58,714 nucleotides of DNA from a virus. Both the position numbers and the translations under genes were made by a program. Under the pieces are notes generated by a model. That model was not told the DNA's origin and searched no databases. It saw only the letters and a program-made list of their open reading frames with translations. Within the stretch, counting starts at the first letter, position 1. Each line of letters begins with the position of its first letter. This document shows, piece after piece, positions 70 through 58,714 of the stretch. The stretch lies in the IMG/VR virus record IMGVR_UViG_3300045391_004028. One strand, 5' to 3'.

Positions 70-85
70 CGGTGCCCGGGTTCAC
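1..85 (-). CDS. Small membrane protein, N-terminal part; gene crosses the linearisation point and continues 58645 down to 58539 (63 aa in total)
   Basis: GTG at 85-83 overlaps stop of upstream gene (GTGA). Joined product is VNPGTGSTALTELGLGLDLLGAALIGGAALCYLVHWRRIGTVLLLWGVCALLFGLAVGSVLAA, with 2 hydrophobic helices and high GC3. Confidence 0.6.
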   Translation of the reverse strand, partial: MNPGTGSTALTELGLGLDLLGAALIGGA

Positions 86-189
86 TTGAACCCGAAGCCG
101 AACGCGCAGGCAGTGATGACGATCACGATGCCGATGATGACGAGCAGCGCGGTGCTGCTCGCCCAGTCGATGGGTGGCTTGTTGCTCAC
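82..189 (-). CDS. Micro membrane protein (35 aa, 1 TM)
   Basis: VSNKPPIDWASSTALLVIIGIVIVITACAFGFGFK. GTGA overlaps at both ends. It forms the tail of ORF-track frame 82..828. Confidence 0.55.
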   Translation of the reverse strand: MSNKPPIDWASSTALLVIIGIVIVITACAFGFGFK

Positions 190-317
190 CTGGAGCATCC
201 TGCCGTAGGACTCGGGCGCCCGTACTGCCGGTCGTGCTGCTCGGTGAGCATCGGGCCATAGACCACGATGAGCGCGATGAACAGCCCGGCGAGCAGCCAC
301 GGCATGACCTTGCGCAC
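186..317 (-). CDS. Micro membrane protein (43 aa, 1 TM)
   Basis: GTG preceded by GGGAGG. Product is VRKVMPWLLAGLFIALIVVYGPMLTEQHDRQYGRPSPTAGCSR. Below the ORF-track size cutoff and translated by hand. Confidence 0.5.
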   Translation of the reverse strand: MRKVMPWLLAGLFIALIVVYGPMLTEQHDRQYGRPSPTAGCSR

Positions 318-326
318 GACGCCTCC

Positions 327-476
327 CTACCTGATCACGTTGAAGTGCACGCCGACGGCGAGCCAGAGCACGGCGTAGACCGTGATGACCGTGAGCTTGT
401 AGCGCTTGAGCTTCCAGGCCACGAGCCCCATGCCGAGCAGGCCGAAGACCAGCCAGCCGTAAAAGAAGACGTCCAT
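327..476 (-). CDS. Small membrane protein (49 aa, 2 TM)
   Basis: ATG directly abuts the upstream stop (TAGATG). Product is MDVFFYGWLVFGLLGMGLVAWKLKRYKLTVITVYAVLWLAVGVHFNVIR. Confidence 0.55.
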   Translation of the reverse strand: MDVFFYGWLVFGLLGMGLVAWKLKRYKLTVITVYAVLWLAVGVHFNVIR

Positions 477-677
477 CTACAGCACCCCCACGATCGTCAG
501 GGTGCTGATGAGCAGCACGACCACGAACGCGATGGCGAAGCCGTAGAAGGCGTAGCGCCTGCTCCACAGCGACATGAACGCGCCCCCGGCGAGCCCAGCG
601 ACCAGCGAGATCATGACCGCGATGATGAAGTCGTTGATCAGGTTGGCGCCGGTGAACAGCGGGTGTTGTGGTTCCAC
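477..677 (-). CDS. Small membrane protein (66 aa, 2 TM), first gene of the micro-membrane-protein array
   Basis: In ORF-track frame 477..812. GTG at 677 lies 5 nt after GGGAGAGAG, and ATG at 707 is an alternative start. Hydrophobic helices IIAVMISLVAGLAGGAF and FAIAFVVVLLISTLTIVGVL. Confidence 0.6.
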   Translation of the reverse strand: MEPQHPLFTGANLINDFIIAVMISLVAGLAGGAFMSLWSRRYAFYGFAIAFVVVLLISTLTIVGVL

Positions 678-2876: not shown

Positions 2877-3593
2877 CTACTGCTTCGGCCCGAAGGCGCG
2901 GTTGGCGGCGGTGAGCAGGCTCGCGGCCAGCTCCTCGACGGCGTCGCGCTCGTCGAAGCCGCAGAAGAAGCCCGCGAAGTCCTGCTCGTCGATGGCCTGC
3001 TCCAGCAGCTCGCCGTCGGAGCACACGGTGCCGATCTGCACGTGGCCGGGCACGGCGGACAGCCGGGTCTCGTACGCCGGGTGGAAGCCCTCCAGGACGG
3101 CCGTGTAGGCGTCGTCCTGCTCCTCACCCTCCAGGACGCCGTCCGGGCCGGTGGCGGCGAGCTGAGCGGCCTGCGTGGCGGTCTGCTCGTCCACGTCGCC
3201 GGTTACGCCGGTGGTGCGCTGGCGCTCCTCGCGCTCGTCGTGGTTCGCGGGCCGGAGCTGGGCCTCCTTGTACTCGTCGATCCGGTCGTCCTCCGGCAGC
3301 ACGACGTTGGCGCGCTGCATGAGCGCGTGCAGATCCTCGGCGCGCACCTCGTCCTTGGGGCCGCTGGAGATGGCGAGCTGGCGGTTGGCGCGCATGAGCA
3401 CGTCCTCCAGCGCGGTGAAGGCGATGCTCTTGTCCTTACCGGCGGGCAGCACCTGATGCAGGGTGGTGCCCAGTTCGGCGACGAGACGCCGGACGGTCTC
3501 GTGCGCGAGCTGCTTGATCTCGGTGTTGGCGGGGTGGAAGCCGATGCCGTCCAGCCAGGAGGCCAGGTCGACATCGAAGTTGGGACGGGTCAC
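2877..3593 (-). CDS. Hypothetical protein (238 aa) with acidic central region
   Basis: ORF-track frame with non-shadow composition. Stop next to the terminator. Confidence 0.75.
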   Translation of the reverse strand: MTRPNFDVDLASWLDGIGFHPANTEIKQLAHETVRRLVAELGTTLHQVLPAGKDKSIAFTALEDVLMRANRQLAISSGPKDEVRAEDLHALMQRANVVLPEDDRIDEYKEAQLRPANHDEREERQRTTGVTGDVDEQTATQAAQLAATGPDGVLEGEEQDDAYTAVLEGFHPAYETRLSAVPGHVQIGTVCSDGELLEQAIDEQDFAGFFCGFDERDAVEELAASLLTAANRAFGPKQ

Positions 3594-21440: not shown

Positions 21441-21755
21441 CTACCCGGTGGCGACCTCAACCGCCGGTGCCACCCCGGACGGCTTCCACGCCCAGTGGTA
21501 GCTGGCGTAGGCGAACGTCCCGACGAGGATCAGCGAGCCGATCACGTCATGGCCATTCCACTGGCCCTCCAGGTACACCGTGACGAACGAGGCGAAGACG
21601 CACAGCAGCGCCGACACGACCAGCTTCAGCCAGCCCGGCCACAGGTGCCGGTTGACGGCCGCGATGATCAGCGGCAGGAAGATGCCGACGAGCATCGACC
21701 AGCGGTCCAGCGTGGTGAGCAGGTCGGTCACCGAGTCGGCGCCGGGCGGCATCAC
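21441..21755 (-). CDS. Holin-like membrane protein (3 TM)
   Basis: 104 aa immediately downstream of and overlapping the endolysin. Helices MLVGIFLPLIIAAV, LKLVVSALLCVFASFVTVY and IGSLILVGTFAYA. Confidence 0.6.
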   Translation of the reverse strand: MMPPGADSVTDLLTTLDRWSMLVGIFLPLIIAAVNRHLWPGWLKLVVSALLCVFASFVTVYLEGQWNGHDVIGSLILVGTFAYASYHWAWKPSGVAPAVEVATG

Positions 21756-22801
21756 GAGCCGCCCTTCAGGGTCGTGCCCAGCAGGTCGCGGACGGCCTCG
21801 GCGATCGCCGGGATGTCCGCCTTCGTGACCGCCGTGACAGGGCTGCTGGCCAGGCCGGACGCGATTTTCTGCGCCAACCTGTCCAGGTCGATGTCCGCCC
21901 CACTGTCCTTCGCGAACGTCGCCAGCAGCAGCATGTCGGCCTCAGTGGCGACGCCGACGAGCGGGACGCCCGCCTTGTCCAGCGCGTCGTTGAGCGCGGG
22001 CCCGATGTGGTTGGCCTCGCTGAGGCCGGTGGTCCCGTCGGTCAGGTAGACGCCGCCGTTGCCGAACGTCTTGCTGGCCTTGGGGTCGTTGAGGATCAGT
22101 CGGATCATGCTGCCTTCCTTCCGCACCGGCGCCGCCGCCGGTGTGCTCGCTCCGATGAGCCTGGCGAAGTCCGCCGTGCTGCCACGGAACAGGTTGGCAT
22201 CACAGGTCGGCTGCCGCCCGATGGTGGCGCTGCTGGAGTACTGGAGGATCGCCGGGGTGCGGCCCGAGTAGGCCGCCCACTTGCCGCTGGTGATCTTCGC
22301 GGCCAGGGTCTTGAAGTCGCCGCTGCCGCTCACGTACGAGCTGGCCCACAGCGGGTCAGGGCCGGGCACCGTGTTCCCGTACGCCCATTGCGGTGCGTAG
22401 TGGATGGTCTGCTTGCCGGTCCGCTTGCGCAGCTCGGCGCACATCGCCGCGCCGGTGGCCGCCGACACCTTGTCGTACGACCAGTGCTCGGTGTCCACCT
22501 GCCAGAACCAGCCGGGGAACGTCCGCCACCACGGCGTCACCTGGTCGGCGTACGCGATCAGGTAGGCCGCCTGCGAGGCGATCGACGGGCCGGGCGTGCG
22601 CGGCACGGCGTAGGCGCCAAGGAACGGGATCCCGGCCGCCCGCGCGCCGTTCATGGCTGCCTGGGGGTGATGTTTGGTGCTCGTGCTCTCGGTGTACTTG
22701 TGCGTGAAGAACGCGATGCCAGCCTTGGCCGCCGCAGCCATGTCCATTGGGCCGCGATCGTGGTCGAAGTCGCTGGCATCCCAGCCGTACAGCGTCGTCA
22801 T
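21752..22801 (-). CDS. Endolysin, GH25-type muramidase domain plus C-terminal domain
   Basis: LYGWDASDFD...FFTHKYTES...FLGAYAV layout as in GH25 lysozymes. ATG at 22801 after AGGAGGAGGGAGG. Confidence 0.65.
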   Translation of the reverse strand: MTTLYGWDASDFDHDRGPMDMAAAAKAGIAFFTHKYTESTSTKHHPQAAMNGARAAGIPFLGAYAVPRTPGPSIASQAAYLIAYADQVTPWWRTFPGWFWQVDTEHWSYDKVSAATGAAMCAELRKRTGKQTIHYAPQWAYGNTVPGPDPLWASSYVSGSGDFKTLAAKITSGKWAAYSGRTPAILQYSSSATIGRQPTCDANLFRGSTADFARLIGASTPAAAPVRKEGSMIRLILNDPKASKTFGNGGVYLTDGTTGLSEANHIGPALNDALDKAGVPLVGVATEADMLLLATFAKDSGADIDLDRLAQKIASGLASSPVTAVTKADIPAIAEAVRDLLGTTLKGGS

Positions 22802-23239: not shown

Positions 23240-23514
23240 AGTGGCCGAGCTGGCTTCCCTGGGCACGGACCGTAGACACTGGTCGCACCGAGCCCGAGGA
23301 GCGGGCCACCCCGAGGCAGCCTGAGGAACCCGACATGACGCCGAGTGACGCCACCGTCCGCGCGACAGCCGCCGCGCGCGCCGCCGCCGTGCGCTTGCAG
23401 GAGTCCCGCGACCGCCGTGAGACAGTGGACCAGCAGGCGTCCACCGTCCGGCGCCTGGTCAGCGAGAACCACTTCGCCGACATGATCCGACAGGCCCTCG
23501 GGAGTGATTCGTGA
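23236..23514 (+). CDS. Hypothetical protein (92 aa)
   Basis: ORF-track. ATGA overlap. Confidence 0.55.
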   Translation: MKWPSWLPWARTVDTGRTEPEERATPRQPEEPDMTPSDATVRATAAARAAAVRLQESRDRRETVDQQASTVRRLVSENHFADMIRQALGSDS

Positions 23515-23846
23515 CCGCTCGCAGCATCACCTACCTGGTGGAGTTTTCGCTGCTGTTCCTGGTCTGGACCACCTTCACGGTGAGCTACCACTTCGTGAGC
23601 AAGGGTGCGTGGCGCAAGACCTCCGCCGGGCGGCATCTCATGTCGATGGGTGTCAGCCTGTCCGTGATCGGCGCGCAGATCATCCTCAACATCTTGTTCG
23701 GCAACTACCCGGGCAAGTTCGTCATCGGCGTCGTGCTGTACAGCACGATGGTCATCGTCGGCGTCCAGCGTCTGGTGCTGCTGCTGCGCGCCTACCGCGA
23801 GCGGCTCCAGCAGGAGCGGGCCGAGCGGTCCAGCGCTACGCGGTGA
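23511..23846 (+). CDS. Membrane protein (3 TM, 111 aa)
   Basis: ORF-track. GTGA overlap. Helices YLVEFSLLFLVWTTFTV, MSMGVSLSVIGAQIILNILF and FVIGVVLYSTMVIVGV. Confidence 0.65.
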   Translation: MTARSITYLVEFSLLFLVWTTFTVSYHFVSKGAWRKTSAGRHLMSMGVSLSVIGAQIILNILFGNYPGKFVIGVVLYSTMVIVGVQRLVLLLRAYRERLQQERAERSSATR

Positions 23847-56566: not shown

Positions 56567-56680
56567 CGTTCGAGCTTACGGAAGGTCAGGCCCAGTACCG
56601 CCGGACGCCCTCGCCGCCGGGGAACGTGTAGCGCTCGATGTGCCAGCGCGGGCCGGGCTCGACGCCCGCGACCGCCAGGG

Positions 56681-56875
56681 TCAGCGCACCGGCCGCGCCG
56701 AGGAGGAGCGCCCGCCGGGTCGGGCCGCCGTGAGCGTCCAGGTGACGAGGAACGCGGCGAGCAGGCCGACCGTGGACAGGCCGGGCTCCAGCAGGACGCG
56801 GGCCAGGGCGACGAAGAACAGCACGAGCACGACGCCGATGACGGCCGCAATGGCGTAGAGGGCGGCGGTGTTCAT
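56681..56875 (-). CDS. Small membrane protein (64 aa); 3' end may continue in another frame
   Basis: ATGA overlap with the upstream gene. MNTAALYAIAAVIGVVLVLFFVALARVLLEPGLSTVGLLAAFLVTW... Coding-like signal continues to 56586 in the -1 frame. Confidence 0.5.
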   Translation of the reverse strand: MNTAALYAIAAVIGVVLVLFFVALARVLLEPGLSTVGLLAAFLVTWTLTAARPGGRSSSARPVR

Positions 56876-57034: not shown

Positions 57035-57238
57035 ATGGAGCAGGGGAAACGTAAGGGTCGCCCACCGTCCGGAGACCCGCGTGTAGTCATCAATGTGCGG
57101 ATCAAGATGGCCTCGAAGACGGCGATCGAGGAGCGCGCGAAGCAAGAGGGGTGTACCGCCTCTGACCTGCACAGACGTCTTCTGGCGTTCGCTCTGGAGA
57201 AGATGCCGCCCGGCTGGGGTCAGGTGCAGATGAGGTAG
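57035..57238 (+). CDS. Ribbon-helix-helix (CopG/Arc-like) DNA-binding protein
   Basis: 67 aa. A basic N-terminus, then VINVRIKMASKTAIEERAKQEGCTASDLHRRLLAFAL as a beta-strand/helix/helix pattern. Confidence 0.65.
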   Translation: MEQGKRKGRPPSGDPRVVINVRIKMASKTAIEERAKQEGCTASDLHRRLLAFALEKMPPGWGQVQMR

Positions 57239-57240
57239 GA

Positions 57241-57270
57241 AACGGCCCCCGCCGGATAGCGGGGGCCGTT
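57241..57270. terminator. Bidirectional intrinsic terminator
   Basis: Perfect 12-bp stem aacggcccccgc / gcgggggccgtt with a 6-nt loop. Confidence 0.75.
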
Positions 57271-57273
57271 CTC

Positions 57274-57310
57274 GTACTACGAAAAACCGGTTCTTGTACT
57301 ACGAAAAACC
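57274..57310. repeat. Two exact 15-bp direct repeats (gtactacgaaaaacc) 22 bp apart in an AT-richer spacer
   Basis: 57274-57288 and 57296-57310 are identical. Confidence 0.9.
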
Positions 57311-57334
57311 CTGTGACGCAATTAACGTCTTACG

Positions 57335-57493
57335 TCACTGTTTCCGGCTGAGCGTGGACAGGAAGATGATCATCCCGCCGATGAGGCCGACGAACGCCGC
57401 CCCCGTCGCATGTTCGCCGTCCTCGATCACGACGTCGGCGACGACGAGAGCGGCTGCCACGAACGAGGTGACCGCCAGGAACCGCAGGAACAT
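57335..57493 (-). CDS. Small membrane protein (52 aa), last gene of the array
   Basis: ATG after GAGGGG. MFLRFLAVTSFVAAALVVADVVIEDGEHATGAAFVGLIGGMIIFLSTLSRKQ. Confidence 0.55.
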   Translation of the reverse strand: MFLRFLAVTSFVAAALVVADVVIEDGEHATGAAFVGLIGGMIIFLSTLSRKQ

Positions 57494-57496
57494 GGG

Positions 57497-57682
57497 TCAG
57501 CCCCTCACTACGCGGTAGACGCCCCAGAACCCGACTGCCCCGATGATCATGTACAGCATGATGGCCGTGCCGTCGTCGGTCGGCTGGCCGAGCAGGGCAA
57601 AGATGAGGTAGAGGGCGAACGCCACCATGGCCGCCGCACAGCAGGCCATGACGAAGACGATGAGGTTGACCAGGCCGTTCAC
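57497..57682 (-). CDS. Small membrane protein (61 aa, 2 TM)
   Basis: GTG at 57682 overlaps the upstream stop (GTGA). In ORF-track frame 57497..57706. Confidence 0.6.
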   Translation of the reverse strand: MNGLVNLIVFVMACCAAAMVAFALYLIFALLGQPTDDGTAIMLYMIIGAVGFWGVYRVVRG

Positions 57683-57759
57683 TGGCCACCTCGCCGGATG
57701 AGCCACGCCAGGATGGCGGTGAAGCCGAGCAGGAACGCGACCACGAAGATCCAGGTCAC
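57679..57759 (-). CDS. Micro membrane peptide (26 aa)
   Basis: VTWIFVVAFLLGFTAILAWLIRRGGQ. GTGA overlaps at both ends. Confidence 0.4.
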   Translation of the reverse strand: MTWIFVVAFLLGFTAILAWLIRRGGQ

Positions 57760-57842
57760 CGGTGCCTCCTCAGTCGCAGGTAGAGCCATGCCCCGGCCAC
57801 GCAGAACGCGGCCAGGCACAGGCAGTTGGCGGCCATGACCAT
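57756..57842 (-). CDS. Micro membrane peptide (28 aa)
   Basis: MVMAANCLCLAAFCVAGAWLYLRLRRHR. TAATG overlap upstream and GTGA overlap downstream. Confidence 0.4.
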   Translation of the reverse strand: MVMAANCLCLAAFCVAGAWLYLRLRRHR

Positions 57843-58012
57843 TACTGGTCCCGGCCGGTGAGCACGCGCCACGAGAGCACGACGTAGACGATGATGAAGA
57901 CCACCACGGCGGCGGCCATCGGGTCGGCCACGCCGGTCACCCAGGCGCCGAACCAGGCGAGGGCGCCGACGAACGCGGCCAGGATGCCGTTGAGGATCGA
58001 CATGATCCACAT
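57842..58012 (-). CDS. Small membrane protein (56 aa, 2 TM)
   Basis: ATG at 58012 after GGAAGGAGG, overlapping the upstream stop (TGATG). In ORF-track frame 57842..58042. Confidence 0.6.
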   Translation of the reverse strand: MWIMSILNGILAAFVGALAWFGAWVTGVADPMAAAVVVFIIVYVVLSWRVLTGRDQ

Positions 58013-58182
58013 CAGCGGGGCCTCCTTCCGGCGAATGCGCACACGATCAGGAACGACGCTGTGCCGAACACGACGGCGCAGGTCAGCGGCGGGATCGCGG
58101 ACGTGCTGGCGCCCACGATCCAGCCACCGACGAACGAGATGAACCCGGCGACGGCCGCGCCGAGGAGCTGGCCCCTGGTCAC
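58012..58182 (-). CDS. Small membrane protein (56 aa, 2 TM)
   Basis: VTRGQLLGAAVAGFISFVGGWIVGASTSAIPPLTCAVVFGTASFLIVCAFAGRRPR. GTGA overlap upstream. Confidence 0.5.
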   Translation of the reverse strand: MTRGQLLGAAVAGFISFVGGWIVGASTSAIPPLTCAVVFGTASFLIVCAFAGRRPR

Positions 58183-58358
58183 TTCAGCCGCCCCAGGACC
58201 ACGGCGACGACGACGGCCGCGACGAACGTAACGACGGCCGCGACTGCCTCGGTGCCGGGGGCGACGACGTGCGCGAACGCACCGGCCGCCGCCGTGGCCA
58301 GCACGATGAGCACGATGACGCCGGAACGCCAGCTCTGCTCCTGCCGCGACGGGCTCAC
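58179..58358 (-). CDS. Small membrane protein (59 aa, 2 TM)
   Basis: VSPSRQEQSWRSGVIVLIVLATAAAGAFAHVVAPGTEAVAAVVTFVAAVVVAVVLGRLK. GTGA overlaps. Confidence 0.5.
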   Translation of the reverse strand: MSPSRQEQSWRSGVIVLIVLATAAAGAFAHVVAPGTEAVAAVVTFVAAVVVAVVLGRLK

Positions 58359-58519
58359 TTGTGCCCCCGCGTCACGGCGAGGGTGAGCACGATGCCCAGG
58401 ACGAAGGCGCCGACGGAGGCCGCCAGCGACCAGGTGAAGGGCAGGTTGAGCGTGAAGGCGGCGGTGAGGACACCGATACAGGTGCCGACCGTTGCCGCCA
58501 GCTTGAGCCGCTTTCCCAT
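58355..58519 (-). CDS. Small membrane protein (54 aa, 2 TM)
   Basis: ATG after CAGGAGAGAGATCC. MGKRLKLAATVGTCIGVLTAAFTLNLPFTWSLAASVGAFVLGIVLTLAVTRGHK. Confidence 0.55.
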   Translation of the reverse strand: MGKRLKLAATVGTCIGVLTAAFTLNLPFTWSLAASVGAFVLGIVLTLAVTRGHK

Positions 58520-58538
58520 GGATCTCTCTCCTGTGAGA

Positions 58539-58714
58539 TCAGGCCGCGAGCACGGAGCCCACGGCGAGGCCGAAGAGCAGCGCGCAGACGCCCCAGAGCA
58601 GCAGGACGGTTCCTATGCGCCGCCAGTGGACGAGGTAGCACAGTGCTGCCCCGCCGATGAGCGCCGCGCCCAGCAGGTCCAGGCCGAGGCCCAGCTCTGT
58701 GAGCGCGGTGCTCC
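58539..58714 (-). CDS. Small membrane protein, C-terminal part of the junction-spanning gene (start lies at 85 in the other copy of the overlap)
   Basis: Same reading frame continues through the 69-bp terminal repeat. Stop at 58539-58541. Confidence 0.6.
   Translation of the reverse strand, partial: STALTELGLGLDLLGAALIGGAALCYLVHWRRIGTVLLLWGVCALLFGLAVGSVLAA
58646..58714. repeat. Terminal direct repeat copy 2 (identical to 1..69)
   Basis: Exact 69/69 match to the start of the window. Confidence 0.95.

Follow-up and report, generated by a model that had tools for sequence, protein, structure and literature searches.

Phage T4 encodes two small inner-membrane proteins, Imm and Sp, each of which works alone to shield an infected cell against other phages. 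The host-takeover module of Bacillus phage SPO1 is a dense block of small accessory genes, some of them encoding membrane proteins, with individual host targets; its products are mostly soluble, and it is made up of many short operons with strong early promoters. The lysis cassettes of Gordonia and Mycobacterium phages contain sets of holin-like genes with transmembrane (TM) domains (Pollenz et al. 2022, PMC9671378), and in Gordonia phage Vardy (cluster DJ, ~60 kb) 13 of ~24 consecutive genes have a predicted TM or signal motif, together with repeated promoter motifs (PMC9671010). Runs of TM genes in actinophages are already known. The subject of this report is an array of 13 adjoining genes for membrane peptides, here numbered m01 to m13, in the virus record IMGVR_UViG_3300045391_004028, a phage from soil that belongs to an actinophage-like lineage; the whole 58,714-nt stretch analysed is referred to as the window. 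The reading favoured here, at a probability of roughly 45%, is that the array is an accessory operon of independent membrane peptides, held in a hypervariable slot and serving conflict at the cell envelope, either phage-host or phage-phage.

Comparison of the window ends shows that bases 1-69 are identical to bases 58646-58714. The window is therefore a circular genome of 58,645 bp, and reading through the junction, as had been done in an earlier sequence-only reading of this DNA, is legitimate. That reading had described 13 consecutive minus-strand open reading frames (ORFs) of 26-66 aa running from 677 through the junction to 57335, and ORF mapping recovers exactly these. They are listed below with their borders (GC3 is the G+C fraction at third codon positions).

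m01, 477-677, minus strand: 66 aa, two TM segments, GTG start behind GGGAGAGAG
m02, 327-476, minus strand: 49 aa, two TM segments, ATG abutting the m01 stop; GC3 0.98
m03, 186-317, minus strand: 43 aa, one TM segment and a polar C-terminal tail
m04, 82-198, minus strand: 38 aa, one TM segment, 13-nt overlap with m03; GC3 0.92; called by an independent gene caller
m05, 85 through the junction to 58539, minus strand (5' part 1-85, 3' part 58539-58714, bases 1-69 duplicating 58646-58714): 63 aa, two TM segments, GTGA overlap with m04
m06, 58355-58519, minus strand: 54 aa, two TM segments, ATG behind AGGAGAGAG
m07, 58179-58358, minus strand: 59 aa, two TM segments, GTGA overlap
m08, 58012-58182, minus strand: 56 aa, two TM segments, GTGA overlap
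m09, 57842-58012, minus strand: 56 aa, two TM segments, TGATG overlap behind GGAAGGAGG
m10, 57756-57842, minus strand: 28 aa, one TM segment, TAATG overlap; GC3 0.93
m11, 57679-57759, minus strand: 26 aa, one TM segment, GTGA overlap behind GAGGAGG
m12, 57497-57682, minus strand: 61 aa, two TM segments, GTGA overlap
m13, 57335-57493, minus strand: 52 aa, two TM segments, last gene of the array
Divergent intergenic region, 678-793, unstranded: 116 nt with a GC hairpin, a likely promoter and the m01 ribosome-binding site GGGAGAGAG
Terminator region, 57244-57338, minus strand: three hairpins, from a terminator scan and RNA folding

Kyte-Doolittle hydropathy gives one or two TM segments in 13/13 of the array proteins, which agrees with the one or two hydrophobic helices originally proposed for each, and the grand average of hydropathy (GRAVY) ranges from 0.08 to 1.43. 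By comparison, a TM segment is found in 7/20 of the other window genes of 70 aa or less (an earlier, rougher count among the other small genes had given 6/17; Fisher p = 3e-4). In a sliding three-frame plot the frame of highest GC3 changes exactly at the borders of the array ORFs, and the per-gene GC3 in their own frames, 0.86-0.98, compares with 0.93 +/- 0.04 for the 25 long genes of the genome, so that the earlier remark on nearly all-G/C third positions stands. Independent gene calls on a public 17-kb Logan contig of the same phage include 11/13 of the array genes, m10 and m11 being missed; since the automatic caller did not call it, m10 is counted with m11 as one of the two least certain genes. 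An alternative 36-aa form of m11, starting at ATG 57789, is used by one public gene call.

Natural variants bear further on the coding nature of the region. All ORFs are intact in a 664-nt ENA contig (98.5% identical) and in a ~92% identical contig of another run; the changes in these are synonymous or mostly conservative, as in m06, which is kept in the ~92% identical contig, and the only indel lies between genes. m05 has synonymous changes at 58611 and 58644 in two natural variants. Near-identical DNA was found in several soil and other metagenomes, and the seeming variant proteins in database clusters differ solely by M or V at the start codon. The sequence-only reading had allowed for a single larger protein in another frame, and the candidate for this is a plus-strand ORF of 195 codons (58269 to 208) that is open across m04-m07. 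Its GC3 is patchy (0.70, 0.92, 0.75 and 0.95), and a 1-nt insertion at 58521 in a natural variant would disrupt it, yet sits in the m05-m06 spacer; this ORF was accordingly rejected as a gene and is regarded as a shadow frame. Judged from sequence, then, the array ORFs are real protein-coding micro-genes in one uninterrupted operon.

The genes are tightly joined. Start/stop overlaps of 1 or 4 nt occur as had been claimed, although at 7/12 of the junctions and not at nine; one further junction is an abutting TAG/ATG, one is a 13-nt overlap, and the remainder are gaps of 3, 9 and 19 nt. Ribosome-binding sites were correctly noted, with GGGAGAGAG before m01 and AGGAGAGAG before m06. An uninterrupted run of genes with more than half its junctions overlapping, all of whose products are membrane peptides, would suit a single stoichiometric hetero-oligomeric membrane complex of the 13 products, such as a pore or channel, and the sequence-only reading had taken the tight coupling as a sign of such stoichiometry. 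However, overlaps of this kind also join 28/75 of the same-strand gene pairs outside the array; the coupling is therefore a genome-wide style of gene packing and is not specific to the array.

Neighbouring array genes diverge at different rates. One relative, L026 (934 nt), is partial and moderately diverged and has the first four array genes in the same order. Its m01 orthologue is 81% identical, with a ratio of nonsynonymous to synonymous substitution rates (dN/dS) of 0.28, and its m02 orthologue is 56% identical with dN/dS of 0.50. In m03 the TM segment has diverged and the polar tail is strongly conserved (PML-x-EQHDRQY...PTAGC), and at the position of m04 L026 carries a TM gene of 39 aa without alignable similarity to m04; dN/dS is 0.85-0.89 for m03 (overall) and m04. 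The same comparison settles the start of m01: a 76-aa form from ATG 707 was considered and rejected because this ATG is out of frame in L026, so that GTG at 677 is taken as the start.

Distant relatives show the turnover on a larger scale. Three of these (L002, L004 and L013) have TerL identities of 63-71%, and two more (L024 and L025) were recruited through a gene resembling that at 2877-3593 on the minus strand of the window, which encodes a 238-aa protein with an Acb2/Tad1 hairpin domain (Pfam E = 8e-12); the identities of this Acb2/Tad1-like protein are 41% and 52%. L025, L024 and L013 have a common order of Acb2/Tad1-like gene, inverted regulatory block, run of micro-TM genes and terL, and in L004 and L002 a micro-TM array likewise lies upstream of terL. 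Comparison of array length in relatives, as had been suggested, shows that the syntenic position holds from 4 to at least 10 coupled micro-TM genes:

L025, 60.9-kb contig: 9 coupled micro-TM genes
L024: at least 10 coupled micro-TM genes
L013: 4-5 coupled micro-TM genes
L004, incomplete contig: at least 7 coupled micro-TM genes, plus 5 more before terL
L002: 4 coupled micro-TM genes

Each of the sampled relatives thus has a micro-TM array, kept in a compact genome. Across genomes no similarity among array members is detectable, apart from L003 and L004, which are nearly identical to each other, and a single marginal match (E = 8e-4). The locus appears to behave as a positionally fixed, sequence-hypervariable slot holding micro-TM genes that evolve fast or are exchanged. 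This bears directly on the proposed stoichiometric membrane assembly. In a fixed complex one would expect the subunits to be conserved and to co-vary; what is seen in related phages is a site filled by 4 to 13 non-homologous genes, and the rates of neighbours are very unequal, from 81% identity in m01 to an unalignable m04. Such a complex is not supported, and is considered very unlikely. The fixed position and fixed micro-TM type, combined with free turnover of sequence and number, fit instead a battery of independent, fast-evolving membrane effectors, and the alternative phrase of the sequence-only reading, a rapidly diversifying peptide battery, has held up well: position is conserved, sequences are unrelated, gene number varies and the rates of neighbours differ widely. 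The array is not general to the wider TerL group, since the distant cultured TerL relatives Arthrobacter phage Ranunculus and Curtobacterium phage Kithara have no TM array before terL. No close cultured relative was found, the window TerL reaching at most ~37% identity to cultured phages. A search of the array DNA against 50,697 phage records gave no match, and a scan of genome contigs for a prophage relative found none.

Profile searches with PHROGs, Pfam, PADLOC and NCBIfam gave nothing significant for any array protein tested, the holin family profiles of Pfam, PHROG and NCBIfam included. Sub-threshold matches to SLATT_3, DUF5862, CrcB, ArfC and a 2TM effector were rejected as compositional; the last of these (m07, E = 0.069) was the only match, itself sub-threshold, to the PADLOC models of TM defence effectors. 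Word-seeded searches of 5.8 billion clusters with m01, m05 and m09 found nothing but the query proteins and one 80% relative of m01, and phmmer, run exhaustively against 1.84 billion representatives with m12, recovered the query alone; the large protein databases thus hold near-identical copies and that single 80% relative, and nothing further. An Atlas feature search with m01 gave only scores below 0.9 to clusters without a name and is given no weight. Paralogues within the array were sought by all-against-all BLASTP, which leaves no match with composition correction; without correction the best match (E = 8e-4 over 30 residues) is compositional. As far as these searches reach, the array proteins are ORFans.

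That all array genes are ORFans, and that m03 and m04 have dN/dS of 0.85-0.89, could mean that the array is mostly dispensable filler, i.e. translated hydrophobic peptides of little or no function that are tolerated by the slot. Against this stand the high in-frame GC3 (0.91-0.98) and the ORFs kept intact in all variants, the dN/dS of 0.28-0.50 for m01 and m02, the conserved tail of m03, and the retention of a similar array in every sampled relative despite the compact genome. Filler is very unlikely as an account of the array.

The borders of the array indicate a separate operon. Upstream, the divergent region 678-793 is ~95% identical to L026 over ~100 nt, vs 55-81% protein identity of the flanking genes, and because it is more conserved in L026 than any of the genes it is marked as regulatory. 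Its fold z-score is -4.9; no canonical sigma-70 match was found in it. From this region a TM gene of 60 aa runs in the opposite direction, as does a regulatory block that includes a gene for an XRE-type helix-turn-helix protein. Downstream, the m13 stop lies within a hairpin (57338-57313) that is followed by a T-run, then by a middle hairpin formed from two direct repeats and by a 10-bp GC stem at 57267-57244; the RNA fold of the terminator region has -55.6 kcal/mol and z = -6.5. Just past it ends a convergent gene for a ribbon-helix-helix (RHH) protein (57035-57238, plus strand), beyond which lie two more TM genes (37 and 64 aa) and terL at 56566-55061. With a conserved divergent region upstream and a three-hairpin terminator downstream, the array constitutes its own transcription unit.

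Several sequence elements were observed at or near these borders. In the middle of the divergent region, at ~742-772, there is a perfect 13-bp GC-rich inverted repeat that is 100% conserved in L026 and could be an operator or an RNA element. The two direct repeats at 57269-57307 (GGTTTTTCGTAGTAC, minus strand), which can pair as a hairpin, are situated between the array terminator and the terminator of the RHH gene, and given the nearby terL could be a packaging or regulator-binding site. A dyad of the form CTGTATG-N7-CATACAG occurs at 13 sites in the window with up to three mismatches, vs 0.6 expected by chance (e.g. at 9093, 11576, 16717, 19359, 39484, 39935, 40615, 41224 and 41763); a dyad of this type precedes the first array gene in relatives L025 and L013.

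Many array members are N-in/C-in two-TM hairpins with basic ends, and the N-in/C-in two-TM hairpin is the topology of class II holins. The array might accordingly be a lysis-timing module of holin-, antiholin- or pinholin-like proteins or lysis regulators that act with a holin encoded elsewhere. By hydropathy the array proteins do have holin-like size and topology (small, one to three TM segments, charged C-terminus), although these features are not specific to holins, and the array adjoins late packaging genes. In actinophages as many as four different holin-like genes, all poorly conserved, can lie in one lysis cassette (PMC9671378), and for phage D29 holin-like lysis regulators are reported to be encoded away from the lysis cassette (bioRxiv 10.64898/2026.08.27.747656). 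On the other side, a holin of the Phage_holin_2 family is recognised by Pfam (E = 6e-19) at 23511-23846, ~24 kb from the array by the shorter way round the circle, so that the array itself is not the lysis cassette. Linkage of the array to an endolysin or lysis cassette was not found, given this distance and its own regulatory region and terminator; terminators and the opposed RHH gene insulate it from the terL operon. No array member matches a holin family, and 13 regulators would far exceed any lysis system described. A role in lysis timing is therefore thought unlikely. Near the holin, a gene for a 349-aa protein without a Pfam match (21752-22801, minus strand), followed by one for a 104-aa two-TM protein, occupies a lysin-like position.

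The neighbourhood of the array points to conflict. Acb2 and Tad1 are anti-defence nucleotide sponges, and the 238-aa protein with their domain is a candidate anti-CBASS or anti-Thoeris sponge, by its domain content; its gene is conserved beside the array neighbourhood in L013, L024 and L025. Because this gene is conserved nearby, and because the turnover of the array has the character of an arms race, envelope conflict is the best-supported function. On this reading the array is an accessory operon that stands by itself, between a conserved upstream region and a terminator of its own, and encodes 13 unrelated two-TM-hairpin or single-pass peptides that probably insert into the host cytoplasmic membrane. 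There they would act independently, not as subunits of one machine, and would most likely keep the DNA of competing phages from entering (superinfection exclusion) and/or counteract or modulate membrane proteins of the host, membrane-bound defence effectors among them. We infer in this way membrane insertion, independent action, expression timing and the conflict function; the genes as such, their hydrophobic character, the separate operon, the fixed position and the turnover are observed.

Small hydrophobic products from an autonomous operon could also be host-takeover effectors with no link to conflict, each binding and inhibiting a host membrane protein of division, transport, wall synthesis or respiration and so redirecting the physiology of the host, in a way that resembles the SPO1 module. 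Genome-wide screens have found mycobacteriophage genes of unknown function whose expression can inhibit growth of the host (PMC9339283, PMC11797047), which would agree with such a role. However, essential host targets are conserved, and effectors directed at them would be expected to be more conserved than is observed; full turnover between phages of 63-71% TerL identity fits an arms race better. Takeover effectors of this sort are accordingly judged a doubtful explanation, about on a par with lysis timing.

A number of points weigh against envelope conflict as the function of the array. The dN/dS near 0.9 for m03 overall and m04 allows that some array members are barely constrained. m10 and m11 (28 and 26 aa) draw their support from frame signal, ribosome-binding site and overlap. 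A scan of the window shows the array to be without a canonical CTGTATG-N7-CATACAG dyad promoter. The distance from the holin is compatible with a lysis role, since the D29 regulators are also reported to lie away from their cassette. Finally, the array proteins have no similarity to characterised exclusion or anti-defence proteins.

Other small TM genes of the window were also correctly noted in the sequence-only reading, namely those of 37 and 64 aa before terL and two of 38 and 34 aa at 7972-8183. The latter are overlapping micro-TM genes on the minus strand just upstream of a tRNA-like RNA unit. The 64-aa gene before terL (minus strand) ends at 56681, and from ~56740 the high-GC3 signal shifts frame (56586-56875). 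The shifted frame is open to 56586 and, after 56921, contains none of the starts ATG, GTG and TTG; its encoded sequence resembles a signal or TM segment with an RR, ahead of a short polar domain. The shift at ~56740 could reflect a programmed frameshift, a non-canonical start or a fused three-TM protein; an assembly error at 56586-56875 is unlikely because independent contigs are identical there.

Among phage genes, those for small membrane proteins form the class that is least well understood, and they are routinely missed by annotation and proteomics. The array offers a natural test bed for these, with 13 genes in one transcription unit, slots that differ among relatives, and per-gene rates from L026. 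A more specific proposal, put forward tentatively, is that of a dedicated "micro-membrane-peptide cassette" slot in which 4 to 13 changing TM peptides are kept between an anti-defence/regulatory island and the packaging genes, each peptide being adapted to its own competitor phage or to a particular host defence embedded in the membrane. If this is true, the cassette would be the counterpart of anti-defence islands at the level of the membrane, and new small inhibitors of membrane proteins could be drawn from it in plenty. If the peptides turn out to serve exclusion or anti-defence, or to inhibit host membrane proteins specifically, the locus would be a new kind of conflict locus and, in addition, a collection of minimal TM binders; if they have no measurable effect, it would give a useful baseline for the micro-ORF coding that a compact phage genome tolerates.

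Compared with the systems described at the outset, the array shares individual features with each. Like the lysis cassette sets of Gordonia and Mycobacterium phages, it places different small proteins (of one to four TM segments in those cassettes) side by side, poorly shared and none duplicated; those sets have at most four genes and stand beside lysin A or B, whereas the array has 13 genes in its own operon, far from the holin and with no adjacent lysin. Vardy resembles the window in having a TM-rich region in an actinophage of ~60 kb. Its TM genes, however, are interspersed with soluble ones and are mostly for bitopic proteins of 57-100 aa with polar domains, unlike those of the array; its longest uninterrupted TM run is 7 by our own count. 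The Vardy region follows the tail genes and the array precedes terL, and there is no sequence relation between them. T4 Imm and Sp, as small phage-encoded membrane proteins that act alone, are like the array peptides in the role proposed for these; they are single genes without homology to the array, and exclusion proteins of the Imm/Sp type are not known to have an array architecture. The SPO1 module and the array are both dense blocks of small genes, the array being one operon in which every product is a micro-TM peptide. No description was found in the literature of an uninterrupted 13-gene micro-TM operon recurring across a lineage in the form of a hypervariable slot. The array is in this respect a new and extreme form of a theme that is already loosely known.

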